A stretch of 64,000 nt of DNA from an uncultured Limibaculum sp. (GCA_951813525.2 CATOTJ020000002.1:196954-260953); one strand, 5' to 3'. Positions 10,070 to 42,109 are shown, numbered from the stretch's first letter. Notes: generated by a model not told the origin, from the sequence alone. Program-made: numbers and translations.

Positions 10070-11172
10070 AAATCAAATCGATCCGCGTTTATGCCGTGCC
10101 TCTGCCGTACAAAACACTGGGACACGTCCGTGTCGCAACGCCAGAGATAACCTTGCAGGACACTGTAGTAGGCATCGAGACGGATGATGGCGTTGTGGGC
10201 TATGGCGAAAGCTGCCCACTCAATCCCACCTATCTGAACGCGACCACCGGCGGACTGCGGGCCGCGCTTGAATTCCTGTGCCCCGTTCTGATCGGCCGCG
10301 AACCCAGGGAAACGGGCGTCATCAACACCCTGATGGATCTGACGGTTCGTGGGCACGAAGCCGCCAAATCGGCAATCGATCTGGCCTGCTGGGATTTGCT
10401 CGGAAAATCGGCCGGATTACCAGTGAGAACACTTTTGGGCGGGGCCGAAGTTGATGGCGCACGACTCTATGACAGCATCCCCATGGACACACCGGCCGCG
10501 ATGCTCAGCACCATTGAAGACAAGCGGAAACAGGGCATCACTGTGTTTCAAGTCAAGCTTGGGCAGGGCGCCGAGCCGGACATCGAACGAATGCGGGCCA
10601 TCGCAGATGTGCTGAAGCCGGGAGAACGCATGATCTGTGATGCCAACCGCGGGTGGACCATGGAGGATGCCCGTCGGGTGGTGGCGGCCGCAGCGCAGTT
10701 GCCGGCTGAGCTGGGCCTGTTGATTGAGCAACCCTGCGCCACATACGACGAGTGCGTCACAATCCGCAAAGTGTGCAACCGGCCGTTCGTTCTGGACGAA
10801 GTCATCGATGACAGTCGTGACCTGGTGCGGGCGAGTGCGGATGATGCGCTCGATGCGGTGGTGATCAAACTCTCCCATGTGGGCGGCCTTACCAAAGCAC
10901 ACGAGATGGCCCGCCTTGCCATGCGTTTAGGCTTGCGTATGCGCATTGAGGACACGGTTGGCGCCGAAATTGTGCGGGCTGCGGTGGCCCATCTGGCGGT
11001 AACGATCCCCGAGAGGTCACTGCTCGCAGCCTACCCCCATCCTGCCGCCGTGTCGCTGGGTAAAGTAGGATCGGTGGCTTCAGAAGGAAAGCTCACGTGC
11101 AGGGACGAGCCAGGACTTGGCTTTGAGCCAGACATAAAAATATTGGGCGAGCCCATACAGCTGTACAGTTGA
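10066..11172 (+). CDS. Enolase-superfamily racemase/epimerase, hydroxyproline-betaine epimerase (HpbD)-like
   Basis: GYGESCPL, AKSAIDLACWDLLGK, QVKLG, DANRGW, EQPC, LDE, EDTVG, PGLG motifs. Confidence 0.8.
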   Translation: MKIKSIRVYAVPLPYKTLGHVRVATPEITLQDTVVGIETDDGVVGYGESCPLNPTYLNATTGGLRAALEFLCPVLIGREPRETGVINTLMDLTVRGHEAAKSAIDLACWDLLGKSAGLPVRTLLGGAEVDGARLYDSIPMDTPAAMLSTIEDKRKQGITVFQVKLGQGAEPDIERMRAIADVLKPGERMICDANRGWTMEDARRVVAAAAQLPAELGLLIEQPCATYDECVTIRKVCNRPFVLDEVIDDSRDLVRASADDALDAVVIKLSHVGGLTKAHEMARLAMRLGLRMRIEDTVGAEIVRAAVAHLAVTIPERSLLAAYPHPAAVSLGKVGSVASEGKLTCRDEPGLGFEPDIKILGEPIQLYS

Positions 11173-11287
11173 CCTTTACGCGCAGAGGTCTCGCGCCTCT
11201 GAACGTCCGAAATTGGCGCACACCGGCTGGCCATCGTCGATCACATCTACATCCATTGTGGGGGCAACAGCGGGCGGGCCATTACGG

Positions 11288-11545
11288 AGCGGGTGGACGG
11301 CCTCTGCTCCACCGGCGTCGAAATGCAGGTGTCATCATCTGTGAAAGAGGCGCCACCCGATGCAAGTCGCCACAATCGGCCTCGACCTGGCAAAAGATGT
11401 TTTCCACGTTCACGGAATTTCTGAGTCTGTAAAGATCGGATTCAATCGGAAGATTAAACGCAAGGACTTGCCGAAGTTCTTTAATCGACTGCCGAAGTGC
11501 ACCGTTGGCATGGAAGCCTTCTTATCAGCACATCACCGGGGCCGA
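11288..11545 (+). pseudogene. IS110/IS1111 5' remnant (left end plus ~60 codons of transposase)
   Basis: MQVATIGLDLAKDVF, paralogous to 38603..39622; left-end IR gtggacggcctctgc. Confidence 0.85.
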
Positions 11546-11610
11546 CCCGCGAGATCACCGGCGCTAACTGGTCCGGCCCAAGATTCTTCGGTCTGAGCGG
11601 CAAGCGATGA
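11546..11610 (+). pseudogene. 3' tail of DUF2924 gene of sibling island A
   Basis: Encodes EITGANWSGPRFFGLSGKR*, matching the end of 34142..34579. Confidence 0.8.
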
Positions 11611-13337
11611 GCCGGGCGCAAAAGATCCGCTGCGCGATCTACACCCGCAAATCCACCGAAGAGGGCTTGGACCAGGAGTTCAATTCACTGGATGCCCAGG
11701 CCGAGGCCTGGGCGGCCTACATCGCCAGCCAGAAGCACGAGGGTTGGATCGCGCTTCCGAACAGCTACGATGACGGTGGGATTTCTGGGGGATCGCTGGA
11801 ACGGCCTGCGCTGCAGCGCCTGCTGGCCGACATCGACGCCAGCAAGATCGATCGGGTGGTGGTCTACAAGGTTGATCGGCTGACACGATCTCTGACCGAC
11901 TTCTCGAAGCTGGTCGAGCGCTTCGATGCGGCCAACTGCTCCTTCGTCTCGGTGACGCAATCGTTCAACACCGCAACCAGCATGGGGCGGTTGACGCTCA
12001 ACATGCTGCTGTCGTTCGCGCAATTCGAGCGCGAAGTCACAGCAGAGCGCATCCGCAACAAGATCGCTGCCTGTCAATCGGCATCCAAACGTGACCCCAG
12101 ATCGGCGTTCAAAAGTGACCCCCCTGGTGCTGAGCAGGCCGGGTCGCGTGGAGACCTCATTTATCAGAGCGCGGCCCGGCCTGCGCGGTTGAATTAGGCG
12201 CGGTTCTTGAAGCGCCAGCTTTCGTTACCGGTCTCAACGATCTCGCAATGATGTGTGAGGCGATCGAGGAGTGCGGTGGTCATCTTCGCGTCGCCGAAGA
12301 CGGTTGGCCATTCTCCGAATGCCAGGTTCGTTGTGACAATGACTGATGTGCACTCATAGAGTTTGCTGATCAGGTGGAACAGCAGCTGACCACCGGTCTG
12401 AGCGAATGGCAGATAGCCAAGCTCGTCCAGAATTAGGAAGTCGAGGCGTGATATCAACTCAGCTGTCCGTCCCTGGCGCTCGGCCCGCGCTTCGGCATCG
12501 AGTTTGTTCACCAGATCGACGACATTGAAGAAGCGCCCGCGGCGGCCCTGGCGGATGCAGGCTCGAGCGATACTGACGGAGAGATGGGTTTTGCCTGTGC
12601 CGGTTCCGCCGATGAGCACGAGATTGCGCTGATGGTCGAGGAAGTCGCCGGTGGCGAGGTCACGGATCAAGGTTTCGTTGACCTCGGCCGCTTCGAAGTC
12701 GAATTCCTCCAGCTCCTTGGCCAGTGGCAGTTTCGCGATGGTCATCTGGTATTTGATTGAGCGCGCCAGCTTCTCGGAGATCTCGAATGCAGATGTCGCG
12801 GAGATCGCATCGGCGCGGCAGTCATTCACACAGATCGAGATGGGTCTGGTGTCACCGGACGCCAACACTCTGCTGACGACCCTGATCTCCGACGGCAAAG
12901 TTGCGCCTGAAAGCCTAAGCGTTGGTCTGGCCGCATCTGCCTTGGCATCCCGTCTCCAGATACCGGTCGCACGGATCAATCGGGACGCCTTGATCCTGAA
13001 CGACAGCTTCGTGCTGCGCAAACGCGGTGTCGAAGCCAGGATGATCCTGAGCGATCAGGCGCCAGTCATCGACAAGCTGCTGGTACACAACCTGGCCCTT
13101 GGCCATGCCTGGCTGGACGATCTCAAGCAAGGCACCACGATTAAGCAGATCGCCGAGCGGCAAAACACTTCTCGACAGCGCGTAGTTGCGATCATCGGTC
13201 TGGCATTCCTCGCACCTGACATCGTTCGGGATATCATCAACGGTCACCAAAGCCCTGCGCTTACCAGTGATGCGTTGATCAAATCTAGTCTACCGCCACT
13301 CTGGGATCAGCAGCGCGCGGCAATCTCCAGACTCTGA
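11607..13337 (+). pseudogene. Large serine recombinase of island A, disrupted by IS21 with internal deletion
   Basis: 11607..12071 matches N-terminus of 34576..36234; ~12788..13337 matches its C-terminus; middle missing. Confidence 0.9.
12072..12787 (-). mobile_element. istB: IS21-family remnant: one end plus 5'-truncated istB ATPase (12194..~12787)
   Basis: TGTCAATCGGCATCCAAA end with repeated GTGACCCC; GGTGTGKTH Walker A, ILDELGY Walker [10 protein letters not shown]. Confidence 0.9.
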
Positions 13338-13517
13338 ACATCGCCAAACCGGCAAAGGGACTCGTGGAAATCGGGTTCTGAGATATCGGCGAGGATACTG
13401 GCAGTTTAGAGATCTAGAGGCGTCTCAAACGTTACCGCGCATCCCTTAACCCATGGAATACACGGCGCTTTTCGTGCTGGAGGGGTGAGACCGACGTACG
13501 GAGAGAAAGCGTGGCGG
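13338..13517 (+). repeat. Right-end sequence of island A ending in att core TGGCGG (13512..13517); homologous to 36235..36414
   Basis: Both start ACATCGCCAAACCGG.AAAGGGACTCGTGGAAA and end GGAGAGAAAGCGTGGCGG. Confidence 0.85.
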
Positions 13518-19229: not shown

Positions 19230-19695
19230 CCAATCAAAAAAGAGCGACCCCGAGACTGGTACCGAGGACGACGAGGTCGGCTACTGCAAGCCGCCCAAGG
19301 CAACCCGTTTCAAGCCAGGCCAAAGCGGCAATCCGGCAGGGCGCCGCAAACGTCCCAAAACGGTCTCCGATCAGCTCGAAGATATCCTGAAACGCAAGGT
19401 CCCGGTGACGCAGAGTGGCCGGGCGAAACGGATCCCGCTTCAGGAATTGATGCTGACCACGCTGGTCAACAATGCGGTGAAGGGAGATCTCGCGGCTTTG
19501 AAGGTCGTTATGGATCTCAAGTCCAGTCATGAGGGTGCCAATCGCGAAACGATCGACCTCAGCCTGCTCGCCTCGGAAAGCCAAGGCATCATCGAGAACT
19601 TTCTCTCAAACGCGACCGGGCCAGAAGACCGTGTGGACCGCACCAACGTCGATGAACCGATTGAAACAGGAGACCAAGATGACCATCAATCATAG
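19222..19695 (+). CDS. DUF5681 protein (candidate small terminase-like subunit)
   Basis: VGYCKPPKATRFKPGQSGNPAGR; overlaps MTase stop and terL start. Confidence 0.78.
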   Translation: MTDQSKKSDPETGTEDDEVGYCKPPKATRFKPGQSGNPAGRRKRPKTVSDQLEDILKRKVPVTQSGRAKRIPLQELMLTTLVNNAVKGDLAALKVVMDLKSSHEGANRETIDLSLLASESQGIIENFLSNATGPEDRVDRTNVDEPIETGDQDDHQS

Positions 19696-24944: not shown

Positions 24945-24972
24945 GCAGGCACTGTCACGTTAAGGCGCCTAG

Positions 24973-25626
24973 GGTCGAAACTCAATCAAACCATTGAAAC
25001 TGTGTGTCCGTTCTGATTCTGTTGATGAAAATCAGCAGGGGAAGAGCAATGGCAAGCGAGTTTTGGCTTTCAGACAGGGCGTGGGCGGCGATCAAGCCCT
25101 TGCTGGCACAAAACCAACCTGGCGCCCGTCGGGTTGACGACCGTCGCGTAATCAGCGGGATCGTTCATGTCCTGAAATCCGGGTGCCGCTGGAAGGATTG
25201 CCCCTCTGTTTATGGCCCGCGAACGACCGTCTACAACCGGTTCAACCGGTGGAGCTGGAAAGGGCTGTGGGGCCGCATCTTTGCCGAACTGGTTGCGCAA
25301 GCCGAAATCCCCGAGGAGCTGAGCATCGACAGTTCGGCTGTGCGAGCGCATCGCTCGGCTCATGGCGGAAAAGGGGGGCGAAGGCTCAGGCCATCGGGCG
25401 CTCGCGTGGCGGCCCGACCACGAAAATCCATGCCCTGACAGATGCCTGCGGAAGGAACGCGGCCTTCTCGCTGACGCCGGGTAATGTCGCCGATATATCC
25501 GCCGCGCCCGCGCTTCTGGCGGTGATGCCTGCACCGCGCCGCCTAATCGCGGACAAGGGATACGATGCCAACAGCCTGCGCAGGAAGCTCGCCGCGGGCA
25601 GGACTGAAGCCGTCACTCCTTCCACA
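24973..25626 (+). pseudogene. IS5-family (IS427-like) element, 3'-truncated by IS6
   Basis: Follows CTAG; orfA from 25049 (WLSDRAW, DDRRVISGI), A4G6 slip site, orfB breaks at IS6 IR. Confidence 0.85.
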
Positions 25627-26425
25627 GGCACTGTCACGGCAACGCCTTTTGACCGGCGAAGTCGTGAAATTGTAATCTTACGCGGCGACGACCTGGTGCC
25701 AATCGGCCAAGGCCTCGGCACGAAGGATCTTGAGTGCGCGGCGGGAGATCAAATGGCGTTGGACGTTGAAGTGGTTGGCGATGGCGGCATGGGATGCGAG
25801 GAAGCGCTGTGCCGATCCGGGCGACTTGGAACGCAGTTGCTGTCGCTCTCGGCGTCGCGTCGGCTGATGGGAGACCTCCGCCCGGTTGTTCGAGCGCCCG
25901 CCGGTCACGTGACGATTGGTGAGGGCGAGATCGCGTAGGGCGGCGCCATAGGACCGAAGTCCGTCCGTCACGATGTTCTTCGGCACGAAACATTGTCGTT
26001 TCAGCAGTTTCCGCAATAGTTTCAACGCTGCCATTCTGTCCCGCTTCGACTGAACCAGGACGTCGAGCACCTCACCCTAGTTATCGACGGCGTGCCAAAG
26101 ATACACGGTCTTACCACTGATCTTGAGAAAGACTTCGTCCAGGTGCCATCGATCCGATGATTGCGGTCTGCGCCGACGAATCCGGTCGGCGTAGAACCGA
26201 CCGAACTTGAGCACCCAACGCCGGACGGTCTCATCGGAAACATCGATGCCGAGCTCGGCGAGTATGTCCTCGACATCGCGATAACTCAGCGTGAAGCGGA
26301 ATTAGAGCCAGACAGCATGTTGGATGATCGCAGGCGGAAAGCGATGACGGGCGTAGGACAAGCTGTTCATGGGACCTGCTACCGTGCCAAATCTTCCGGC
26401 GCTACGGGGTTAATGTGACAGTGCC
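25627..26425 (-). mobile_element. IS6-family element with inactivated transposase (25678..26370, two nonsense codons)
   Basis: GGCACTGTCAC IRs at both ends; HRFPPAIIQHAVWL*, YLWHAVDN*GEVLD, NNRAEVSHQPTRRRE. Confidence 0.88.
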
Positions 26426-26668
26426 CTCTGGCGGTCAATGAAATACGAATGCGTCTATCTGCACGCCTGGGAGGCCGGATCAGAGGCCAAGGCCGGGATC
26501 GGAAAGTGGATGGCGTTTTACAACCGTAAGCGCCCCCATTCCGCCCTTGGTGGTAGACCGCCAGCCGTGGTCTATTGCGAGAGAAACGAAACCAGCCACC
26601 CCGATCAGCAGGAGCAAAGAGTAGCTTAAACTACGCCAAATTTTGTCCTGCGATCGGGGAGTAGCTCA
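26426..26668 (+). pseudogene. IS3-family orfB 3' remnant with right end
   Basis: KYECVYLHAWE...YNRKRPHSALGGRPP; ends ggggagtagctCA. Confidence 0.8.
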
Positions 26669-26751
26669 AACTTCACAGTGCCGAAGATGGAAGGAAACTT
26701 GCCGAAATGATACTCTGCCCTCGTTGGCATTGCGTCGAGGAGGGTATAACA

Positions 26752-27096
26752 ATGCAGCGTTTGTCACGTTTCTTGTGCTGTGCATTCGTTACAGCTTCCC
26801 CTGCTTTTGCGGATGGTGACTACAACCGAGGAAAGGTGCTCGCCAAGCAATGGGAATGCACAAACTGTCACGGGTTGACCGGAAATGAGCGCTGGCCAGA
26901 CACTCCAGGCCTAGCCGCCGTGCCAATGCTTGCGGGTCAACCGGCCAAATATTTGGTTAAGTCGTTGCGGGAGTTCGGAGCTGGTGATCGGATCGACGAC
27001 AGCGAGCTCAAAAAGATGTCCCTAATAAGCCAGAGTTTGAACGATCAAGATATGGAAGACATAGCTGCATACTTCTCTGCTCAAAAGCGATACTGA
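26752..27096 (+). CDS. Periplasmic monoheme class I cytochrome c (c553/c4-like)
   Basis: Signal peptide, CTNCH, P.LAGQ, distal M, DMEDIAAYF; GAGGAGG RBS. Confidence 0.85.
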   Translation: MQRLSRFLCCAFVTASPAFADGDYNRGKVLAKQWECTNCHGLTGNERWPDTPGLAAVPMLAGQPAKYLVKSLREFGAGDRIDDSELKKMSLISQSLNDQDMEDIAAYFSAQKRY

Positions 27097-27180
27097 AGCT
27101 TAAATTGGGTTCACAGCTGCCATCTGAGGGTTTGTGTTGGGTTTTTCCAACGTGATCAGCACTTAATGGCAAGTGTCGGG

Positions 27181-27717
27181 AGATGCTGTTGAAAAACTCG
27201 TCATTGAAGTAGTGACTGATCGTTGATCCAATCCCCGTGGATTGGAAGAGGCGGGTACGATGTTGGTGCCGAGGCAAGAGGCGCAAGGCGCGCTGTTCTA
27301 CGAGTTTTCGATCGAGGGCGCCGTTCCCGTCGACCATATTCTGAGAAGGATCGACCGTTTCGTTGATCTGTCAGACATTCGCGGTTTCCTCGCTCCCTTT
27401 TATAGTTTGACTGGTCGCCCCTCGATTGATCTAGAGTTGATGGTCAGGATGCTGATCTTGGAGTACTGTATGGGCATCCGGTCAGAGCGGCGTCTTTGCG
27501 AAGACGTTCATCTCAACCTTGCGTACCGGTGGTTCTGTCGTCTCGACCTGGCAGATCCGGTTCCGGATCATTCGACATTCTCGAAGAACCGCCATGGTAG
27601 GTTCCGCGACAGCGACCTCTTCCGCCACCTTTTCGAGCAAGTGCTAGAGCGCTGCATCGCGGAGGGTTTGATAGGCGGCGATCAGTTTGGGGTCAACGCC
27701 TCGCTGATCAAGGCTGA
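27181..27717 (+). pseudogene. IS1182-family element, truncated by IS3
   Basis: gctgttgaaaaactc end; DHILRRID, GRPSIDLE, SERRLCE, PDHSTFSKNR; stops at IS3 IR. Confidence 0.85.
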
Positions 27718-28937
27718 TGACCTGAGCCCCAAGTTTCCTCCGGCGTTCGGAGAGTCCTTGGTTTGGGTTTGATGGTGCTACGCTGCGATCCTGTCCACTT
27801 TTATCTTCTCTGCAAATTCCATGGGTGTCAAATTTCCCAGTGCCGAATGTGGTCTGTGCCGGTTGTAGTCAGTCCGCCATTCTTGCAGGCCGTCTCGGGC
27901 GTCGCTGAGCGACGTGAACAGGGTCTCGTTCAGAAACTCGTCCCGCAGCCTTCCATTGAAGCTTTCGATGAAGGCGTTCTGGGTCGGCTTGCCGGGCGCT
28001 ATGTAGTGCCATCCGACGCCGGTCTCCTGGCACCAACGCAGCACTGCCATGCTGGTCATCTCGGTTCCGTTGTCTGAGACGATGGTGTTGGGCAGACCGC
28101 GGCTTGCAGTGATCCTGCTCAACTCCCGCGTCATCCGAAGCCCCGACAGGGACGTGTCCGCGACCAAGGCAAGGTTTTCACGGGTGAAATCGTCCACGAC
28201 GGCCAGGATCCGAAACCGCCGTCCGTCTGTGAATCGATCAGACACGAAGTCCAGGCTCCAGCGTTGGTTCGGGCCATCGGGCATAACCATTGGCCGTCGT
28301 GTCCCCAAGGCGCGCTTCCTGCCGCCTCTGCGGCGCACCTGCAGCCGTTCTTCGGCATAGATCCGTCGGACTTTCTTGATGTTCACTTCGAAACCCTCCC
28401 GGCACAGCATGACGTGGATACGGCGGTATCCGAACCGGCGACGGTCACCGGCGATCCGTCGGATGGCCTCGCGCAGATCGACGTCTTCAACGCGGCGTGA
28501 CCGGTACCGCACCGTCGATCGGTCAATGTTCAGAGTGGCGCACGCCCGGCGCTCGCTGACACCGTGGGCATCCCGCAGATGCGCCACAGCCAGCCTCTTG
28601 GCACCAGGCGTCACCACTTTTTTGAGTTCACATCCCGAAGCATCGTGATGTCCAGCATCTGCTCGGCGACCAGCTTCTTCAGGCGGGAATTCTCGTCCTC
28701 GAGATGCCGCAGCCGTTTGGCGTCCGAAGGCTCCATCCCGCCGAACTTGGATTTGTACTTGTAGAACGTACCCTGGCTGATCCCATAACGGCGGCAAATG
28801 TCAGGGGCCCTCTCACCAGCTTCGTGCTCTTTAAGCATCTGGATGATCTGTTCGTCGCTGAATCTCGGCTTCATGTTTGGTCCTCTCTCAATGGAGAACT
28901 CTACCATTCCGTGGAGGAGATTCAGGGGCTCAGGTCA
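27718..28937 (-). mobile_element. Complete IS3-family (IS407-like) element; orfA 28611..28874, orfB ~27778..28614
   Basis: TGACCTGAGCCCC terminal IRs; A6G frameshift motif; DDE core; no target duplication visible. Confidence 0.93.
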
Positions 28938-29484
28938 CCGGCTGTTCGTTCCGCGTGCAGCGAAGGTCCGATTGCGGTCCGCCAGCACCTGTAAGATGAA
29001 AGTCTTCAATCGCGCAGAGATCCCAGTAGTCCACGACGGGCGAAGGTCCGGTTCTCCCTTGAGACTTCCAATCTTCCGCGATGCAGCATTCGTCAACAAG
29101 GGCTCCAACCAGACATCTCTTGCAGCGCAAGATCGCCGATTCCGCACGCTGCTTCCGTCGTCAGTTACGGCCCGCACCGGCCATTTGCCGGTGTCGTTGA
29201 TGCTGCGGTCGCGTCCCCGTTTCCCGCCATTCGCCGCGGCAGCGAAATCTTACTTGGTGACTTCGGCAGGTGTCGGGGACAAAGCGGAAATAGCGGGTTT
29301 AATAACCACGATTCCGCAAGTCGGGGATGATGTAAAAAAAGTCATTCCAGAACTGAATCAGTATTGGTTGAACACGTCACCAAAGACAATTTGTTCCAGT
29401 AAGGGCACTAAGGATGATATAATCCCCTCCAGAGACGGTTAAATAAACAGAAAATGTTCACCAATTTTTTATCGGAGACATAAT

Positions 29485-31119
29485 ATGGCGCACCATTTAC
29501 ACGTATGGTCCGACATTCCGGGGCATCGTTCCATATCTACCGAGGGTCCAGCCAAGGCGCACGCTGACAACGATCCAGATGGCGTGGCTATCGAAGTCCG
29601 TAGTTTCAAGGATTTCGAGAAGGCTTTGGGTGAATTGGCCTACGACGGATATCTGTTCGACCGCGCCGACATCCATTGCCACGGCAGCCCAGGAAAGATT
29701 TATCTTGGCCGTGACAAGGTCGGCTATGAAGACGTGGACGCGCTGCGCGCCAGCGGACACCAGAATGGCTACGGATCATTGTTCAAGGCCGACAGCATCT
29801 TCAAACTAGGGTCTGTGGACATTCATCTTGACGCGATGAGCGCAGCAGCGAGGTTCCAGCAGGCGGCGTAGCTGCAATCAGTTTTGTCGTACCGCGTGGC
29901 TATGCCTCTGAATTCCTTTATCTTTGCGAAGTAGTTTTCGACGAGATGCCGCCATTTGTAGACCTCAATGTCGTAGGCGCGCTTTATCTTTCGATTGCCC
30001 TTAGGCGGGATCACGGCGGTTGCGCCGCGCGCATCGAGTTCTTTCAGCAGCCAATTCGCGTCAAATGCCCTGTCCGCGAGCAGGGCATCGAACGAAACAT
30101 CTTTGATCAGCGGCGCGACACCCTTCATATCGTGCGCCTGTCCCGGCAGAAGCAGGAACCGCACCAGGTTCCCAAGCGCATCGACCAGCGCTACGATCTT
30201 GGTCGTCAGCCCGCCACGCGAGCGTCCGATGGCCTGAGCCTGAGCCCCCCTTTTGCGCCGGTGGCTTTCTGGTGAACCTGAACAATGGTGCCATCGATAA
30301 GCGCATATTCAAGGTCGGGGTCATCACTCACCGCCTTGAAAAGACTCTCGAAAACACCTGCTTTGGCCCATCGCCGGAAGCGCCGGAACTGGCTGTTCCA
30401 ATTTCCAAAAGCGGGCGGCAGGTCACGCCACGGTGACCCCGTGCGCACACGCCAGAACACAGCCTCCACAAACAGCCGGTTATTCTTCGCGGTCACGCCG
30501 CTGTCGCTGGCTTTGCCTGGAAGGTGGGGTTCAAGCCGCTGCCACAAAACATCTGTCACCACAAACCGCTGCTCGTTCATTCAAACCTCCGTTTCGAAAG
30601 TTTGAATCAGAAATCAGATCAAATGGGAATCCTGATTGTCCACGGACCCTAGTTGGATGCAATGTTGGCCAATATGCCGCAGGCGAATACTTCCTGACCA
30701 TTTTCGCTGAGGTCTTCGTTGGCCGGAACGGCGGCTGGGTCGGGGGCAACACTGGGCTGGGACTGAACACCGAGAACGCCCCTCATCCGTTCGGGAACTG
30801 GGTCTGGGCCCATGCGGCGGGTGGGGCGACAACAGGGATGTCCGGGCACAGCTGGCTGACCGATGCGTCGATCAAGAAGCGGTGCGAGGATGCCAGCAAC
30901 CTGCTGAAGCATCTGAAAAACCGATGGGGCAAACCTGTCACATTCGAGGTTGAAACCTTCATACTGGAGCGGATCAAAGTGGCGCGTCAACACCTAGCGC
31001 TGGCCTCGAGGGACCGGTTCAGCTTGCTTTATATCGCCTGCGAGCATCTGGACCATGCCGAAGCCCGGTTGAAGAGGATCGTATGGGAACAAAGTCACCT
31101 GTATTCCGATCGGCATTGA
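29485..31119 (+). pseudogene. DUF4347/caspase-like-fold hypothetical protein (~263 aa) split by IS5
   Basis: Removing IS plus one CTAG restores ...IHCHGSPG...IFKLVGCNVG... in frame. Confidence 0.7.
29810..30648 (-). mobile_element. IS5-family (IS427-like) element, intact
   Basis: IRs GGTC(T/C)GTGGACA; CTAG at 29806..29809 and 30649..30652; orfA 30206..30580, orfB to 29823, A4G6 slip. Confidence 0.93.
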
Positions 31120-31260
31120 ATTCTGAGCCCACCTCGATGCGGCCTCGGGTTGAATGGGCTCTAACCCGTCATCCATTGCACCGCCGGGATCTGATGTAAT
31201 GTCTCCTTGCCAACGTCTGGTTGGCAGGGTGGATGGGAGCTTCAACTCGGAAGATCCATC

Positions 31261-31893
31261 ATGCAAACACCAAACTTACCCGCCATTCGCCCTCAGCGCC
31301 CAGCCTGGAATAAGGGACGGCTGGTTGGTCAGAAACGCCCGTTGATGCCGAAACATGTCTGGGCCATCCGTGTTCGGCTTGAGATCGCAGAAAACCACCG
31401 TGACCTTGCCTTGTTCAACACCGCGATCGACAGCAAGTTGCGCGGACGCGATCTCGTGCGGCTCCAGGTGGCTGACGTCTTTGCAGCAGGACAAGTCAAG
31501 GAACGAACCTCGGTGCTGCAGAGTAAAACGCAGAAACCGGTCAAGTTCGAGCTGACCGAAGGCACGCGCAAATCGATTGCGCAGTGGCTGAAGGACCCTC
31601 GGATGACCGGGCAGGAGTTCCTATGGCCGGGCCGGTTCCACGAACCCGTGCATATCTCGACGCGCCAATACGCTCGTCTTGTCCGAGATTGGGTCCAGTC
31701 GATCGGCTTGGAGCCAAGCGCATTCGGCACGCATTCAATGCGCCGTACAAAGGTCGCGCAGATCTATCGTAAGACTGGGAATTTGCGAGCGGTGCAACTT
31801 CTGCTCGGACACACAAAGATGGACAGCACTGTTCGTTACCTGGGTGTCGAGCTCGAAGATGCACTGGCAATTTCCGAAGCCGTCGAGCTCTGA
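31261..31893 (+). CDS. Minimal tyrosine recombinase (210 aa, catalytic domain only)
   Basis: SKLRG (R), HSMRR (HxxR), LLGH, TVRY; N-terminal WNKGRLVGQK motif. Confidence 0.9.
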   Translation: MQTPNLPAIRPQRPAWNKGRLVGQKRPLMPKHVWAIRVRLEIAENHRDLALFNTAIDSKLRGRDLVRLQVADVFAAGQVKERTSVLQSKTQKPVKFELTEGTRKSIAQWLKDPRMTGQEFLWPGRFHEPVHISTRQYARLVRDWVQSIGLEPSAFGTHSMRRTKVAQIYRKTGNLRAVQLLLGHTKMDSTVRYLGVELEDALAISEAVEL

Positions 31894-31900
31894 AGAGGAT

Positions 31901-31923
31901 GGGCCGCTCGTTGTGGGCGGCCC
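31901..31923 (+). terminator. GC hairpin after recombinase
   Basis: GGGCCGC-N9-GCGGCCC; weak U tail. Confidence 0.45.
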
Positions 31924-32437
31924 TTAGCAGACCATGGCGCTTCGCTCAACGAATGACAGGAGTCAGCCCAGACTTAAATCCCCCTTCTGACGGATGGGCT
32001 GCGAAACGCCCATTCGCTGGCTGCACATGGTGTTCCCGGACTTATCTCAAAAGCGGTCATACAAGCGCCATAGGCCCGACTGAAACCGTCAGATGTCGGC
32101 TTCGAGCCCATATTGACTGAGGCTGCATCTGGGCTGGCCGGCATTAAGGGTGCCAGACCGGACATTCTACTGGCCTGGGTTACAAGAAGACCTGAACCAC
32201 TGCAGACATCATGGATCGAGTAGACAACTGGACGGATCAGCAACACCTTAGGGCACATCTTCGTTTCCAGCTCCATGTCAACGGTGCAATGCAATTGGAA
32301 AAGACGAATTCGGGCATCGCGGTCTATCTGAATTGAGACGTTGAGCGCACATCAAGAAGATGAGAAACGCAAAATCCGTCGACAATTGATGTCGTAGGCC
32401 ACAAGCTCGGGAGCACTTTTAAAAAGGGGTTGAATCT

Positions 32438-33019
32438 ATGAAGGCCATTCTCAAAATCAGCGCCTTTGTGGCTGTCTTTTTTGCATCGTCTGCAGCTTGG
32501 GCCGCTTGCACAACAGATGTCAGAAAAGACGATTTGACAGATGAGCAGGTTCAAAGCCTGTACGACTGCGTGAAAAGCGAGCTGCGAGATGGTTATGCAT
32601 CAAGAGGCGAACCTTTGACGAAAGAATACCAAGGATGGAGAGCAGCTACAAAGCTTCCTGGTATTTCACGCGTTCACGGCAAGCGCTTCCTGATGATCTT
32701 TGCTAACAATGTTGCGTTCGACGAATATGTCAAATTCTCTCAATATCGCGGGGCTATGCCTGTCGGATCAATTCTCGCAATGGAAAGCTTCAACGTGACC
32801 AAAAGGGGCAAGGTTAAGCGCGGCCCACTGTTCCTGATGACAAAAGTTGAAACCGGCGGTGAGCAAGCAACATTTGGCAACTGGCTTTACATGGCTTTCA
32901 GGCCAAGTGGCAAAACCATGAAAGTCAAGCAAAGCCTTTGCCATCGTTGCCACGGCAATTTTGTCGAACAGGATTCACTGGGTTATCCATGGGAAGAAAA
33001 CCGGGTTTCAACTAACTAA
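32438..33019 (+). CDS. Cytochrome P460 / c'-beta family protein
   Basis: Signal peptide, YQGWR, P.GSILAMES, GNWLY, C-terminal CHRCH. Confidence 0.8.
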   Translation: MKAILKISAFVAVFFASSAAWAACTTDVRKDDLTDEQVQSLYDCVKSELRDGYASRGEPLTKEYQGWRAATKLPGISRVHGKRFLMIFANNVAFDEYVKFSQYRGAMPVGSILAMESFNVTKRGKVKRGPLFLMTKVETGGEQATFGNWLYMAFRPSGKTMKVKQSLCHRCHGNFVEQDSLGYPWEENRVSTN

Positions 33020-33788
33020 GACCATTCGCCTTTTGATGGAGCATTCAAAGGGTTACGCACCTACGCTTACGACGCATGACGGTTCATGGTACTTCCCGCC
33101 AGTAGGCCGGACGGCAGCTTTCGGGGGAGGATCGTGAATCCGAGTTTCATGCTCGACGGCGGCTTTGTCCCGATTGTGTGAATTCGCTTCGCCCTGACCT
33201 TCGCACTCGCCGCGAATGTCGGCAAACGAGAACGCGACCGCAACGATCAGAGGAGTTGGCAAACCGCAGTAACGAACCGTCCACGCTTTTCGACCATGTC
33301 CGCTTCCTGCGCGTTGCTGACGTTTAACGCGTGCTCGTCGAACTTCTGCTCGCCAGAAATGTCGGAGATAAATCTGAGCGTCAACACTCACGCTGTCGGA
33401 TGTCTGCTCTAGCAGTTCTACCAAGATCGGTGTTGCGGAGCAGCGAACGGCTCCTTCCCGCCAAACTCCCATAATGCGCCACGGTTTTGCGAACATTTCG
33501 CACACAATTTTACCCAGTTTCGGCTCATTCCCGATCATACTTGTGAAGGTCTGGTTAGCCGTTCGGTCGATCGCGCCGCTCGAACAGTGCTCGCGCCACC
33601 AAAAGCACATCGGTATGCTCAAAATCCTCGAGTTCTTCCCTGAATGGACTGGACTTCAGCGTCACGTGAAGCGTGAGTGTTCTTGCGCTGAGGGGCGGGC
33701 ATTCCCCCGACCTGGCACAGGCCCGGAAAACCCGGGCTCGTCTCAGTAGGAGCAGCGGGATTGGCCCGCGGCCGACACGGAGACGAAC

Positions 33789-34145
33789 ATGACCACGCAA
33801 ACCAAGCCCGCCACGAACCGGTCCCGCAGCAAGCCTGCGTCGCAGCCAGCAATACGAACGGCAGTGAAGGCGCGGCGTTCGCCGAAGGCAGACTCGGACG
33901 CCAAGGTTGAGAACGCCGCGAAGCCCCAGACCAAACGGGCGCAGTTGATCGCGCTTTTAGGCGCAAAGACGGGTGCTGACATCGAAGCCCTGAGCAAGAC
34001 GCTCGGCTGGCAGCAGCATTCGATCCGCGCCGCGCTTACTGGCTTGCGCAAGGCGGGCTTCGAGATCGCCCGCGAAACACCCGCCAGCGGCGGCGCGGCG
34101 CGCTACCGGATCACGGCCAGGCCGGAACCGGTCGCCGCACAATGA
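33789..34145 (+). CDS. DUF3489 winged-helix protein
   Basis: TKRAQLIALL...LGWQQHSIRAALTGLRK...YRI. Confidence 0.8.
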   Translation: MTTQTKPATNRSRSKPASQPAIRTAVKARRSPKADSDAKVENAAKPQTKRAQLIALLGAKTGADIEALSKTLGWQQHSIRAALTGLRKAGFEIARETPASGGAARYRITARPEPVAAQ

Positions 34146-34579
34146 CGACCTTGGAGGACAAGCAAGAGGGGGTGGCCCGCAAGATTGCGGGCCTCGCCGA
34201 TCTCGAGCGCGATGAACTGGCCGCACGCTGGGAAAAGGTCTTCGGGCGCCGTGCCCCGTTCAAGCTGTCGCGAACGATAATCGAGAAGGCATTGGCCCAT
34301 GAGATCCAGTGCAAGGCCTTTGGCGGGCTCTCGCGATCGACGCGTAAGGCCCTGCGCTTGGCTCTTGGCGCCGATCCCAACCCGGCTATCACTCGAACTG
34401 CCACACCGGGCGCCCGCCTGATCCGGGAATGGAACGGGCGGACCTATGAGGTCGATGTCGTCGAAGGCGGTTTTGAATGGGAGGGGCAGACCTGGCGCTC
34501 GCTCAGCCGCATCGCCCGCGAGATAACCGGAGCGAACTGGTCTGGCCCTAGGTTCTTCGGCCTGACCGGCAAGTCATGA
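34142..34579 (+). CDS. DUF2924 protein
   Basis: PGARLIREWNG, SLSRIAREITGANWSGPRFFGL. Confidence 0.85.
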   Translation: MTTLEDKQEGVARKIAGLADLERDELAARWEKVFGRRAPFKLSRTIIEKALAHEIQCKAFGGLSRSTRKALRLALGADPNPAITRTATPGARLIREWNGRTYEVDVVEGGFEWEGQTWRSLSRIAREITGANWSGPRFFGLTGKS

Positions 34580-36234
34580 GCCGGGCGCAAAAGATCCGCT
34601 GCGCGATCTACACCCGCAAATCCACCGAAGAGGGCTTGGACCAGGAGTTCAATTCACTGGATGCCCAGGCCGAGGCCTGGGCGGCCTACATCGCCAGCCA
34701 GAAGCACGAGGGTTGGATCGCGCTTCCGAACAGCTACGATGACGGTGGGATTTCTGGGGGATCGCTGGAACGGCCTGCGCTGCAGCGCCTGCTGGCCGAC
34801 ATCGACGCCAGCAAGATCGATCGGGTGGTGGTCTACAAGGTTGATCGGCTGACACGATCTCTGACCGACTTCTCGAAGCTGGTCGAGCGCTTCGATGCGG
34901 CCAACTGCTCCTTCGTCTCGGTGACGCAATCGTTCAACACCGCAACCAGCATGGGGCGGTTGACGCTCAACATGCTGCTGTCGTTCGCGCAATTCGAGCG
35001 CGAAGTCACAGCAGAGCGCATCCGCGACAAGATCGCTGCGTCGAAGCGCAAGGGCATTTGGATGGGTGGGAGTGTCCCCTTAGGATACGATGCCAAGGAC
35101 AGAACACTGGTGACGAACGAGGGCGAAGCCCAGACGGTTCGGCAGCTGTTTGCGCTCTATGACCAACACGGCTCGGTGCGGGCAGTGGCCGCGGAAGCCG
35201 ATCGCTTACGTCTCACAACGAAACAGCGGGTCGGGAGCAATGGCGAGATCACCGGCGGCACATCGTTCAGCCGCGGCCACATCTACCACCTGCTGTCGAA
35301 CCCGATCTATATCGGGCGCATCCGGCATCGTCAGGAAACCTATGACGGACTGCATTCGGGAATCATCGCGCAGGATCTCTGGGACCGGGTTCAAGCAAAG
35401 CTTGCCGCCAACGCGGCCCGTTCCAAACGCCGCGAAACCGCAGCATCACCTTCTCCCCTGGTTGGAAAGTTCTTCGATGAGATCGGTGATGCTCTGACGC
35501 CATCGCACGCCGTCAAGAATGGGCGGCGTTATCGCTACTACATCTCGCACCGTCTGATCGCACGGAGCGGCGAGGACCAAATCGATGGATGGCGCCTGCC
35601 AGCCAAAACGCTGGAAGAGGCAGTTGCGGGATTGATCACAACGTTCCTGAAAGATCCGAAGACACCATCAAAAGTGATTAGGGATGCAGATGTCGCGGAG
35701 ATCGCCAGCGCACGACGCATCTTCGAACAGATCGAGAAGGCCCTTGGATCGCCCGACGCCGATACCATTCTGACCACGCTGATCTGCAAAGGCAAAGTTG
35801 CAGCTAGCGACCTGAGCATTGTTCTGGATACATCGAACTTAGCATCCCACCTCCAGTTATCCGTCGCCCGGCTCAACCCAGATGCCGTGATCCTGAACAG
35901 CTGCTTCGTGCTTCGCAAACGCGGTGTCGAAGCCAGGATGATCCTGAACGATCAGGCACCAGTCGTTGACAAACTGCTGTTGCACACCACGGCCCTTGGC
36001 CATGCGTGGCTTGACGATCTCAAGCAGGGCATCACGATCAAACAGATCGCCGAGCGGGAAAACATCACCCGCCAGCGCGTTGCAGCTATTATCGAACTGG
36101 CATTCCTCGCACCTGACATCGTTCAAGACATCGTGGAAGGTCGCCAGGACCCTGCTCTCACGACTGACGCCCTGCTTAAATCCCAGCGCCCAATGCACTG
36201 GGATCAGCAGCGCGCGCGAGTCTCCAGACTCTGA
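34576..36234 (+). CDS. Large serine recombinase (island integrase), 552 aa
   Basis: YTRKS catalytic Ser, VYKVDRLTRS, FAQFERE, recombinase domain, PLGY. Confidence 0.93.
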   Translation: MSRAQKIRCAIYTRKSTEEGLDQEFNSLDAQAEAWAAYIASQKHEGWIALPNSYDDGGISGGSLERPALQRLLADIDASKIDRVVVYKVDRLTRSLTDFSKLVERFDAANCSFVSVTQSFNTATSMGRLTLNMLLSFAQFEREVTAERIRDKIAASKRKGIWMGGSVPLGYDAKDRTLVTNEGEAQTVRQLFALYDQHGSVRAVAAEADRLRLTTKQRVGSNGEITGGTSFSRGHIYHLLSNPIYIGRIRHRQETYDGLHSGIIAQDLWDRVQAKLAANAARSKRRETAASPSPLVGKFFDEIGDALTPSHAVKNGRRYRYYISHRLIARSGEDQIDGWRLPAKTLEEAVAGLITTFLKDPKTPSKVIRDADVAEIASARRIFEQIEKALGSPDADTILTTLICKGKVAASDLSIVLDTSNLASHLQLSVARLNPDAVILNSCFVLRKRGVEARMILNDQAPVVDKLLLHTTALGHAWLDDLKQGITIKQIAERENITRQRVAAIIELAFLAPDIVQDIVEGRQDPALTTDALLKSQRPMHWDQQRARVSRL

Positions 36235-36408
36235 ACATCGCCAAACCGGGAAAGGGACTCGTGGAAACCGGGTTCTGAGATTGCGTCGAGAACATTGGCA
36301 GATCTGAGACCCAGACGAGTCTCAAACCTCACCGCCGACCCCCTAAGCCACGGAATACACGGTACTATTCGTGTTGAGGGGGTGAGATCGGCGTGCGGAG
36401 AGAAAGCG

Positions 36409-36499
36409 TGGCGGGCAGGATGGGATTCGAACCCACGAGACCCTTTTGGGGCCTACTCCCTTAGCAGGGGAGCGCCTTCGACCACTCGGCCACCTGCCC
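36409..36499 (-). tRNA. tRNA-Ser(GCT)
   Basis: GGGCAGG/CCTGCCC acceptor stem, CT-GCT-AA loop, long variable arm, GGTTCGAATCC, encoded CCA. Confidence 0.96.
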
Positions 36500-38361: not shown

Positions 38362-39704
38362 TGTGGATGGCTCCTGCATTGCAAGGACGAATTTGTCTAT
38401 CGCGCGTCGTGTCAGTACAGTCGTGTGTCCGGCCTGTTCGCGCGGTGACATGTAGTCTCCGCTGGCCTTGATGATTTCCGCAGGCAAGGCTCCATTCGGC
38501 AAAGCGAACTCGGAGGTCCGCGGACATTCCCGGAGTGTCCTGGCCTTTGGCTGACTATGCGTGCATCAGTTCATTCGTCTTGCATCTCGTGGGCGGCGCG
38601 TATCAGAACGCAGGCGCCCGGTATTCAGTTCCTTTCGCAAGCAGCGCCCAGATCACCCTGGCTGTCTTGTTGGCCATGGCGACGGTGGCGAGCCTGAATG
38701 GCTTCTCGGCGATGATGTTTGCGGTCCAAACGTCCGTGCGTTCGGGATGTGTTCGGGCGAGCAGCCCGCGGGAGGTCATGCCAGCGACCAGTAGCCTTCT
38801 GATGTATTGATCGCCTTTCTTCGTGATTTTACCTAGCCTCTCTTTACCACCGCTTGATCGGTTCAGTGGTGTGAGTCCCAACCAAGCAGCGAGGTCCCGG
38901 CCTGTTTTGAATTGCTTCGCGTCGCCGATCGTCGTGACGATCGCTGACGCTGTGATTGGGCCAACACCAGGGATTCTCTGAAGTCGGCGACAGCGTTCGT
39001 CGAGAAAGGCATGCTGCTCGATTAGTCGAGTGTAAACTTCGGCGCGTTGGTTCACGGCGAGGATATGGTCGCACAGGCTCCAGATCGTTGGCAGGCTTAC
39101 CTCAGGCAGACCAGCGTGTTCTCCGTCAATGAACTCCTGCGCGAACTTCAGCGTCGCTTCAATTCCCGTCGGCAACACGTGGCCGAACTCCCGAAGAACG
39201 CTTCGCACCATATTCGCGAGCTGGGTGCGTTGGCGAATGACTAAGTCCCGTGAGCGGTGAACCGCCAGGAAAGCCTGCTGATCTACCGTCTTTATCTTCA
39301 CAAACCTCATCGTGGGGCGGCGAACCGCTTCGCAGATGGCCTCCGCATCGACTGCGTCCGTCTTTCCCCGTTTGACATATGGCTTCACATAGAACGCGGG
39401 CATCAACCGGACATCATGTCCAAACTTACTGATCTCTCGGCCCCAGTGGTGTGCTGAGCCGCAAGCTTCCATGCCGACAACACATCTTGGCAGCCGGTCA
39501 AAGAACTTCAGCAAGTCCTTGCGTTTGATCGTCCGATTGAATGCAACCTCACCGGACTCAGAAATTCCGTGAACTTGGAAAACATCCTTGGCCAGGTCGA
39601 GGCCGATTGTGGCAACTTGCATGGGGTGGCTCCTCTCTTGCAGATGATGACATCTGCACTATGGCGCATTGCGACGCCGTTGGAGCAGGAGCCATCCACC
39701 CCAT
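38362..39704 (-). mobile_element. IS110-family, IS1111-subgroup element (ends approximate)
   Basis: Perfect 15-bp sub-terminal IR GTGGATGGCTCCTGC at 38363..38377 and 39685..39699; long 3' non-coding end. Confidence 0.88.
38603..39622 (-). CDS. IS110/IS1111 DEDD transposase/recombinase
   Basis: GLDLAK, MEACG, KTDAVDAEAI, PGVG, GLTP..SSGG motifs. Confidence 0.95.
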   Translation of the reverse strand: MQVATIGLDLAKDVFQVHGISESGEVAFNRTIKRKDLLKFFDRLPRCVVGMEACGSAHHWGREISKFGHDVRLMPAFYVKPYVKRGKTDAVDAEAICEAVRRPTMRFVKIKTVDQQAFLAVHRSRDLVIRQRTQLANMVRSVLREFGHVLPTGIEATLKFAQEFIDGEHAGLPEVSLPTIWSLCDHILAVNQRAEVYTRLIEQHAFLDERCRRLQRIPGVGPITASAIVTTIGDAKQFKTGRDLAAWLGLTPLNRSSGGKERLGKITKKGDQYIRRLLVAGMTSRGLLARTHPERTDVWTANIIAEKPFRLATVAMANKTARVIWALLAKGTEYRAPAF

Positions 39705-41412: not shown

Positions 41413-42109
41413 GCGTTTGCTACATATGTCCCCTGCAAAGCGCCATGATAACGACTTTAGCTCTATTCATCTCGCGACACAGAGATCAATCGGTACCCGT
41501 TTCGCGCAAACTCGCCATTTGAAACCTCGCTATCTAAGTCACTATGGTCTCAGTTTTCAACGTTGAATGGCGGCAAACCGAACGCTGCAGTGCAGCATTC
41601 AGGGCGCATGCCACAGTCCGCCGAGGGCCGTCCGCTTTGTCGTCAACTCCGGACTTAGCTTACCGCGGATCGGTCAACCAGCATCCGCCAAAAAATCGGA
41701 CATTTGAAGAGGTTTGATGGTTGCGCGCCAGTGGGAGTTTTGTGCCTGCATCCATTTTAGGACGAGAGCCCTTGTACCGCCTTGAACCCAGTGCGACCAG
41801 TCGGCGGCGGTGAGCGGGTGCGGCCAAAGATTGGATCGCAATTCGTGACAAGGGAACGGGTGGTCACGAAGTAACAAGAGATGAAGTAGAAAGCATGGGC
41901 CTCCGGTTCGGTTGAATTGGCCAAGGTAACGGCCGCACCGCTCCGGCCCGGTATCGGGCGGCTCATTGGATCGAGACTTCAATTCCGGATTGATCGTAAG
42001 ACTGATAAGTGCCCGGATGCGGGGGAGCCCCGGAAAATTCGACTTGAGCCGACCCGATCATGTCCGGCACATTTCCAATGTTCTTAGAACCTGAACCTGG
42101 GAGGTACGA

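Follow-up and report, generated by a model that had tools for sequence, protein, structure and literature searches.

The window analysed in this study is a 64,000-nucleotide (nt) stretch of DNA from an uncultured Limibaculum sp. (GCA_951813525.2 CATOTJ020000002.1:196954-260953), for which an original prediction had proposed an integron-like region of single genes separated by palindromic recombination sites. Our analysis indicates that the region is probably the remnant, damaged by insertion sequences (ISs), of a small array of cassettes for site-specific recombination, arranged around a tyrosine recombinase of 210 amino acids (aa). A family of short asymmetric repeats is linked to the gene for this recombinase in the window and in related loci, and in related genomes the repeats coincide with breakpoints of gain, loss and rearrangement, which the original prediction had named as its decisive test. 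The system looks like recombinase-driven cassette mobility that is common in marine Rhodobacteraceae and apparently undescribed.

The recombinase and its 0.77-kb unit

The recombinase gene (31261..31893, plus strand) encodes a protein consisting of the catalytic domain only (PF00589, E 2.7e-16; 60 bits, cut-off 27). It has the catalytic residues R, HxxR, H and Y, and the motifs LRGRDL, HSMRRT, LGH and VRYL pair with those of XerA (5hxy). None of the curated families was reached: archaeal XerA was the best, with 56 bits against a cut-off of 220, scores were far below the XerC/XerD cut-offs, and the integron integrase model TIGR02249 gave 19.7 bits where 265 are required, and the extra domain of IntI was not found. 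Homologues are numerous (>8000 proteins at E<=1e-10), with relatives 80-88% identical across many Rhodobacteraceae genera and members of the family in 365 plasmid records, including plasmids of E. coli, Klebsiella, Pantoea and Vibrio.

Since homology between the window and a metagenome relative (L081) is limited to 31152-31928, a recombinase unit of 769 bp was defined at 31155..31923 (plus strand). The unit begins with a TGGGCTC box and continues with a promoter-like, TG-extended -10 element, a leader with a small hairpin, the gene, and a GC hairpin ending in CGGCCC. Recombinase units of 765-777 bp that are 98.8-99.9% identical were found in Paracoccus onubensis, P. caeni and Pseudooceanicola, and units identical to the same degree are shared by Aliiroseovarius and Actibacterium. 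The flanks of these units are unrelated, and identity begins exactly with TGGGCTC and ends exactly with GGCGGCCC.

The leader hairpin, a palindrome of the form CCAAC-N5-GTTGG (31209-31225) about 45 nt before the start codon, occurs at the same place in L001-L080. Compensatory changes were seen at four of the five pairs when 64 loci were compared, and the palindrome may act as an operator or, in the RNA, as a regulatory stem.

The repeat family

A repeat search of the window recovered a sequence of 38-47 nt at 29080 (plus strand), at 31136 (plus strand), 125 nt ahead of the start codon of the recombinase gene, and at 32092-32129 (minus strand). The 38-nt pattern derived from these three copies matched the window exactly three times and was absent from 100 shuffles. 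Two hidden Markov models (HMMs), one of an upstream element of ~75 nt, termed the site, and one of a downstream element of ~125 nt, termed the module, were built and used in nhmmer searches. HMM matches in the window were confined to 29.0-33.3 kb, apart from three weak alignments below threshold. Rfam models had no match at E<=1 within 28800-32500.

Common to all parts of the repeats is the 12-mer AGCsGACATTCG after a G/C hexamer. The basic box, ~25-30 bp long, consists of the hexamer (CGGCCC, GGGCTC or a weaker variant), 2-3 nt and GCsGACaTTC; its left side is poorly conserved and the side of the 12-mer well conserved. The consensus at junctions, CGGCCC or GGGCTC followed by AnAGCsGACaTTC, is asymmetric and usually in direct orientation, and cassette junctions usually hold several boxes in tandem, with the site followed by the module. 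A weight matrix made from 74 junction cores of 32 nt (tTcAcggaCGGCCCATAgCnGACaTTCAcC, 26 bits) gave its best score in the window, 19.3, at 29160-29191 and a score of 18.1 at 31910-31941. Weaker matches were obtained on the minus strand at 32086-32117 (10.1) and 33149-33180 (11.5), while the matches above 8 at 19308, 19343 and 30736 were within the range expected from shuffles.

The order of elements in the window is an inverted module fragment, site A, the core at 29168, a module, the DUF4347-like gene with its IS, site B, the recombinase gene, the hairpin with the core at 31918, then a degenerate module extending to ~32072, and an inverted cytochrome P460 cassette extending to ~33283. The first of these (28938..29060, minus strand) is a probable inverted module fragment with two inverted 12-mers, truncated by an IS3 element; it was recognized by eye against the module consensus, and its HMM support is one weak match (28973-28953, E 0.5). 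Site A (29068..29128, plus strand; nhmmer E 6e-6) is a copy without a recombinase gene that also matches the 38-nt pattern. The junction core at 29160..29191 (plus strand), in which CGGCCC (29168-29173) is followed by GCACCGGCCATTTGCC, is proposed as a crossover point and as the start of the DUF4347-like cassette, and it is followed by a partial module (29176..29252, plus strand, model positions 3-80, E 2e-8). Site B (31137..31184, plus strand), found with both the HMM and the 38-nt pattern, lies upstream of the recombinase gene and contains the TGGGCTC box at 31155-31161. Downstream of the gene, the hairpin GGGCCGC-N8-GGCGGCCC and the core CGGCCC (31918-31923), followed by TTAGCAGACCATGG, occupy 31901..31941 (plus strand). 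The degenerate module behind it (31924..32072, plus strand) contains several diverged 12-mers when read against the module consensus, and 31918-31987 matches a second degenerate-module region in L081. Site C (32088..32134, minus strand; nhmmer E 1e-7), whose GGGCTC is the reverse complement of 32104-32109, and a module with the third box CGGGAC at 33167-33172 (33156..33261, minus strand, model positions 13-119, E 3e-11) are both inverted. A 43-nt inverted repeat, 29204-29246 and 33200-33242, was considered as the ends of an element and rejected, as it corresponds to the second box of two opposed modules.

All of the words listed in the original prediction are present in the window at the positions given there, and six of them fall within the repeats. 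TGCAGC at 29082 and 29121 and GCTGCA at 32122 are within HMM matches to the site, whereas TGCAGC at 28956 and GCGAAGGTCCG at 28960 and 29040 are within the inverted module fragment. The copy of CGGACATT at 32159 lies just outside site C, and this word is the centre of the 12-mer AGCsGACATTCG. Enrichment of the words was uneven: GCGAAGGTCCG occurs three times against 0.05 expected (none of 100 shuffles reached this count) and CGGACATT, more mildly, seven times against 2.75 +/- 1.45 (one of 100 shuffles reached seven), but GTCCG/CGGAC, with about 200 copies in the window, and TGCAGC/GCTGCA, with 53 copies, are common and uninformative alone.

Linkage of the repeats to the recombinase gene in related loci

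In order to examine the association beyond the window, 80 Rhodobacteraceae loci of related recombinases were fetched, and counts were made over 79 of them. The 140 nt upstream of the gene are conserved, with the site motif at a fixed distance from the ATG. A site upstream of the gene was found in about 50 of the 79 loci and the hairpin with a downstream module in 33, the GC hairpin itself being present in nearly all. Additional copies of the site or the module occur within 4 kb in 36 loci, 54 of these copies in the orientation of the gene and 11 inverted.

Site and module also recur without a recombinase gene between them, as a site, ~50 nt and a module, in copies 70-90% alike. Such copies lie 0.6-6 kb apart, separated by genes, and most of them are oriented like the recombinase gene; cassettes are found on both sides of that gene. 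In L054, for example, the order is site and module, a short-chain dehydrogenase/reductase (SDR) gene, site and module, LysR and a transporter, site, recombinase, and module. Related cassettes carry LysR with a transporter, an ABC operon of five genes and its regulator, or nrdHIEF, in either orientation. On an 84-kb plasmid, core matches were present only beside the recombinase gene, plus one at chance level.

Outside the Rhodobacteraceae, the E. coli IncFIB plasmid pWA8 (L096) encodes a small integrase that is 55% identical and has the word AGCGGACATT after its hairpin. At L096 4875-7639, this integrase gene and a hypothetical gene of 476 aa are bracketed by a 19-nt direct repeat, TGTGCCAAnAGCGGnCATT, which contains AGCGGACATT; one copy is 2.7 kb upstream, and the downstream copy follows the GC hairpin.

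Breakpoints in related genomes

Plasmids of Phaeobacter inhibens carry two segments whose order differs between replicons. Segment X (6.65 kb) consists of a module, genes for a metallophosphoesterase, an ABC transporter and LysR, and a site, and segment Y (1.78 kb) of a module, a hydrolase gene, a site, the recombinase gene and the hairpin. The order is XY in pP92_b, whereas pP92_a and pP54_a have YX; the three backbones differ, two replicon types are represented, and two of the plasmids belong to one strain. All nine junctions of these segments are at CGG|CCC, with the 12-mer behind it, and the sequence shared at the junctions is only 5-8 nt long. Between pTHAF197b_c and pP92_a, the type IV secretion genes are homologous up to GGTGACGG, immediately before CCC, beyond which the cassettes differ. 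Metagenome contigs encoding an identical recombinase protein showed one-sided differences that start inside the site or at the end of the hairpin.

An insertion hot spot with this GGTGACGG|CCC border is shared by two RepABC/MOBP plasmids from different genera (L094 18887, L101 36877); it is located where the last virB-type gene has its 3' end, and the cassettes behind it differ. In pP92_b (L093), a TniQ-family gene at 10674-12245 ends exactly at the junction core TGACCTTCCGGCCC, which is either a coincidence or a link to targeting of the Tn7/Tn5053 type.

Proposed mechanism and alternative explanations

In the proposed mechanism, the recombinase would pair two boxes and exchange strands in or beside the G/C hexamer. 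Recombination between direct boxes would excise a circle or integrate it at another box, and such excision and integration could build arrays, permute the order of cassettes and move them between replicons, whereas inverted boxes would lead to inversion, as for the P460 cassette. Lying between two boxes together with a promoter, a leader and a GC hairpin of its own, the recombinase gene would itself constitute a mobile unit of ~0.77 kb. The cassettes of the window would then be, in order, the DUF4347-like cassette, which was later hit by an IS, the recombinase unit, and the inverted P460 cassette. The sequence comparisons show the repeats, their linkage to the gene and the breakpoints; catalysis by this recombinase, circular intermediates and the precise positions of cleavage are inferred.

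Several observations weigh against this interpretation. The breakpoint between L083 and L084 is ~17 nt upstream of the GGGCTC box, off any box. The crossover can be located only to within the 5-8 nt that are shared at junctions. The sites do not show the pair of clear inverted arms that a classical tyrosine-recombinase core would have. No extra site was detectable within 4 kb in 43 of the 79 loci, one plasmid has bare cores only, with neither site nor module, and on some plasmids copies are up to 20 kb from the gene. The circles and the catalysis are deductions, and the data from the source runs are assembled contigs, in which rare forms drop out. Finally, homologous recombination between the longer repeats could have produced some of the rearrangements.

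This last possibility can be extended to an explanation of the whole, in which ordinary intergenic or terminator repeats are rearranged by homologous recombination and the recombinase is a passenger or a mere resolver or inverter. A site with its module spans 200-300 nt, which is enough for RecA, the copies are 70-90% alike, and the L083/L084 breakpoint lies off the boxes. We nevertheless consider this explanation unlikely, as the recombinase unit is found between unrelated flanks in different genera and at a bare core at the 3' end of a secretion gene, where no long homology exists; in addition, the overlaps at the junctions are 5-8 nt, and the repeats cluster at the recombinase gene and are not distributed genome-wide. 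Alternatively, the enzyme might be mainly an invertase, with sites B (plus strand) and C (minus strand) flipping the gene as a switch for its own expression or that of its neighbours. In the window as well as in L009, L012 and L052 the gene has inverted copies on its flanks, the P460 cassette is inverted, and the protein is about the size of FimB. Only 11 of the 65 extra copies are inverted, however, most loci have direct copies, and neither movement between replicons nor the XY/YX permutation is explained by inversion, which makes this function quite improbable as the main one.

The original prediction itself described an integron-like platform in which imperfect palindromes (AATGTCCG...CGGACATT) dispersed throughout the window flank cassettes on one strand, including the cytochrome c gene and distant cargo borders. 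The words are present, CGGACATT is mildly enriched, and the cargo consists of single genes on the plus strand. Against this, the spacers are mostly ISs, and none of the remote words assigned to the family (11202, 38521, 41584-41654 and 57191) had a significant HMM or weight-matrix score. The boxes are asymmetric rather than palindromic: DNA folding of eight junction stretches gave z values of -1.6 to +1.7 relative to shuffles, and because the junctions fold no better than shuffles, an attC-like palindromic reading fails. The TIGR02249 score (19.7 against 265) and the operons with regulators, in both orientations, of the related cassettes also speak against such a platform, which appears highly improbable. 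What holds of the dispersed degenerate sites proposed for a minimal recombinase is that a repeat family is tied to the recombinase, though the family is neither palindromic nor window-wide. The sites do delimit cargo, in the form of single-gene and small-operon cassettes, but the cytochrome c gene has no site.

On the evidence of the linked repeats and the breakpoints, the cassette array around the recombinase is the preferred interpretation of the region. A broader proposal, which is quite possible and which we put forward tentatively, is that these loci represent a second, integron-independent cassette system of proteobacteria. Its driving part would be an autonomous 0.77-kb element with a catalytic-domain-only recombinase as its sole gene, which would insert at short asymmetric boxes and mobilise passenger genes or operons that have these boxes at their ends, giving arrays and hot spots on plasmids and chromosomes, with AGCGGACATT kept from marine Rhodobacteraceae to enterobacterial plasmids.

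Comparison with known systems

Integrons resemble the present system in having a tyrosine recombinase, arrays of short gene cassettes bounded by sites, shuffled order and fixed hot spots in the backbone. The likeness is functional only, in that cassette borders coincide with recombination sites and the order varies between strains, and it does not extend to the anatomy. By the defining features tested, the system is not an integron: there is no IntI-specific domain, the sites are asymmetric and do not fold, some cassettes are whole operons that bring regulators of their own and may point either way, and one member of the array is the recombinase gene itself. The cassettes of integrons are promoterless single genes that all point away from one promoter beside the integrase; no common cassette promoter was identified here.

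The pdif modules of Acinetobacter are likewise accessory modules of plasmids that are bounded by short recombinase sites and occur in varied contexts and orientations. They use the host XerC/XerD and 28-bp sites with an 11-6-11 dyad, whereas here a dedicated small recombinase is associated with a box whose 32-nt core matrix shows no clear dyad and which often occurs as 4-5 tandem copies. In the R64 shufflon, the sfx sites are asymmetric with one well-conserved arm, as are the boxes described here. Rci is a larger enzyme that is not known to act on any but inverted sites and gives inversions, in contrast to the mostly direct sites of this family and to products that look like insertions and excisions.

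Cryptons are similar in principle, being mobile units whose sole gene encodes a tyrosine recombinase; they are not known to have terminal inverted repeats and are thought to move as a circle via a short shared sequence. Unlike the units described here, Cryptons are eukaryotic, larger, and without arrays of passenger cassettes. Tandem accretion, as in arrays of integrative and conjugative elements and cis-mobilizable elements (ICE/CIME) and in the tycheposons of Prochlorococcus, also produces stacked elements with repeated att sequences, of which only some have an integrase. Those elements have full-size integrases, usually use tRNA genes and extend over many kb, whereas the autonomous unit here is 0.77 kb and its targets are the family's own boxes or look-alikes. 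FimB and FimE, of ~200 aa and essentially a catalytic domain, invert one promoter segment. The recombinase shares their size and catalytic-domain-only build, and no sequence relationship to them beyond the superfamily was detected in the curated-family search.

No prior description of this cassette system was found in the literature searched, the coverage of which was incomplete, so that this absence is weak evidence of novelty and not proof. If the interpretation is correct, the system would be a simple and very widespread route for moving genes and would explain the shuffling between replicons of accessory genes that, on roseobacter plasmids and islands, have no transposases at their borders. 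The compact pair of a recombinase and a site of ~30 bp could also be tested as a tool. For annotators, a GC hairpin ending in CGGCCC and followed by AnAGCsGACaTTC would be a signature of cassette borders that current pipelines label merely as 'tyrosine-type recombinase/integrase'.

Cargo genes and the P460 cassette

The original prediction correctly identified the genes for cytochrome c, the DUF4347-like protein, the recombinase and P460 as unrelated genes all on the plus strand (PF00034, PF14252, PF00589 and PF16694, respectively). The DUF4347-like cargo gene (29485..31119, plus strand) is interrupted by an IS. Its two parts, 29485-29809 and 30653-31119, rejoin in frame once the IS at 29806-30652 is removed and hence represent one open reading frame of 263 aa (PF14252, E 6.5e-6 after removal of the IS). 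A search for the cassettes of the window elsewhere yielded no homologues of this protein at E<=1e-10.

The cytochrome P460 cargo gene (32438..33019, plus strand; PF16694) lies in a cassette (32075..33283, outer limits approximate) that is inverted relative to the recombinase, with the site as well as the module on the minus strand. The nearest relatives of P460 are at most 66% identical and are found in a conserved chromosomal MatE-P460-RimP context without sites. In run X1, from the source strain, the P460 stretch was at twice the baseline depth, with a second copy that has other flanks. The twice-present stretch runs from ~32099-32109, at the GGGCTC box of site C, to ~33160-33171, at the third box (CGGGAC) of the module. 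In addition, comparison of 31156-33436 with runs X1 and X2 revealed a second copy of the recombinase in the source genome, ~8% diverged, and a junction joining 33171 through 37 nt to 32075 was present in the source runs at single-copy depth.

The cytochrome c gene (26707..27096, plus strand; PF00034) had no site, module or core match nearby in searches with the two HMMs and the weight matrix. Because it is flanked by IS remnants and adjoins no site, it cannot be counted as a cassette, and its membership of the cassette system is not demonstrable.

Insertion sequences and other features of the window

Most of the spacer DNA between the four genes, which had been described as containing degenerate palindromic sites, consists of ISs, and for these spacers the description was incorrect. 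An N-terminal fragment of an IS1182/IS5-type transposase (27242..27717, plus strand; PF05598 DUF772, E 3e-27) is cut by an IS3 element, the fragment stopping at the inverted repeat of that element (pair I23). The IS3-family element (27718..28937, minus strand) is complete, with orfA at 28611-28907, orfB at 27778-28797, HTH_Tnp_1 and rve/rve_3 domains and the terminal repeats TGACCTGAGCCCC (I23); along its whole length it shares 75% identity with an annotated IS3 of Aliiroseovarius. The element inside the DUF4347-like gene (29806..30652, minus strand; DUF4096 and DDE_Tnp_1) belongs to the IS5 family (IS427 group) and has a CTAG duplication and 25-nt terminal inverted repeats (I6). Its depth in the source run was ~1450 against a baseline of 90, corresponding to ~16 genome copies, which indicates that the element is high-copy in the source genome, where it is probably active.

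Upstream of the cytochrome c gene, a C-terminal fragment of an IS3-type integrase was recognized by inspection at 26438-26629, and remnants of the IS6 and IS5 types were also present. Three copies of the IS6-type terminal repeat GGCACTGTCACG (24948, plus; 25627, plus; 26425, minus) surround an IS5/IS427-type fragment and a decayed IS6 transposase, and the arrangement at 24948-26425 looks like nested or rearranged ISs. Further downstream, the gene for an IS110-family transposase (38603-39622) adjoins the copy of CGGACATT at 38521, and the supposed cargo border at this position is the end of an IS rather than a member of the repeat family.

A large serine recombinase locus (DUF3489, DUF2924 and a recombinase gene at 34576-36234) is located at 33789-36414 of the window and is partly duplicated at 11546-12070 (97.9%) and 12787-13517 (78.6%). 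The 22 kb between the copies contain a terminase-like gene, a gene for a cadherin-type adhesin of 1057 aa, the IS cluster and the cassettes, and this may be one island.

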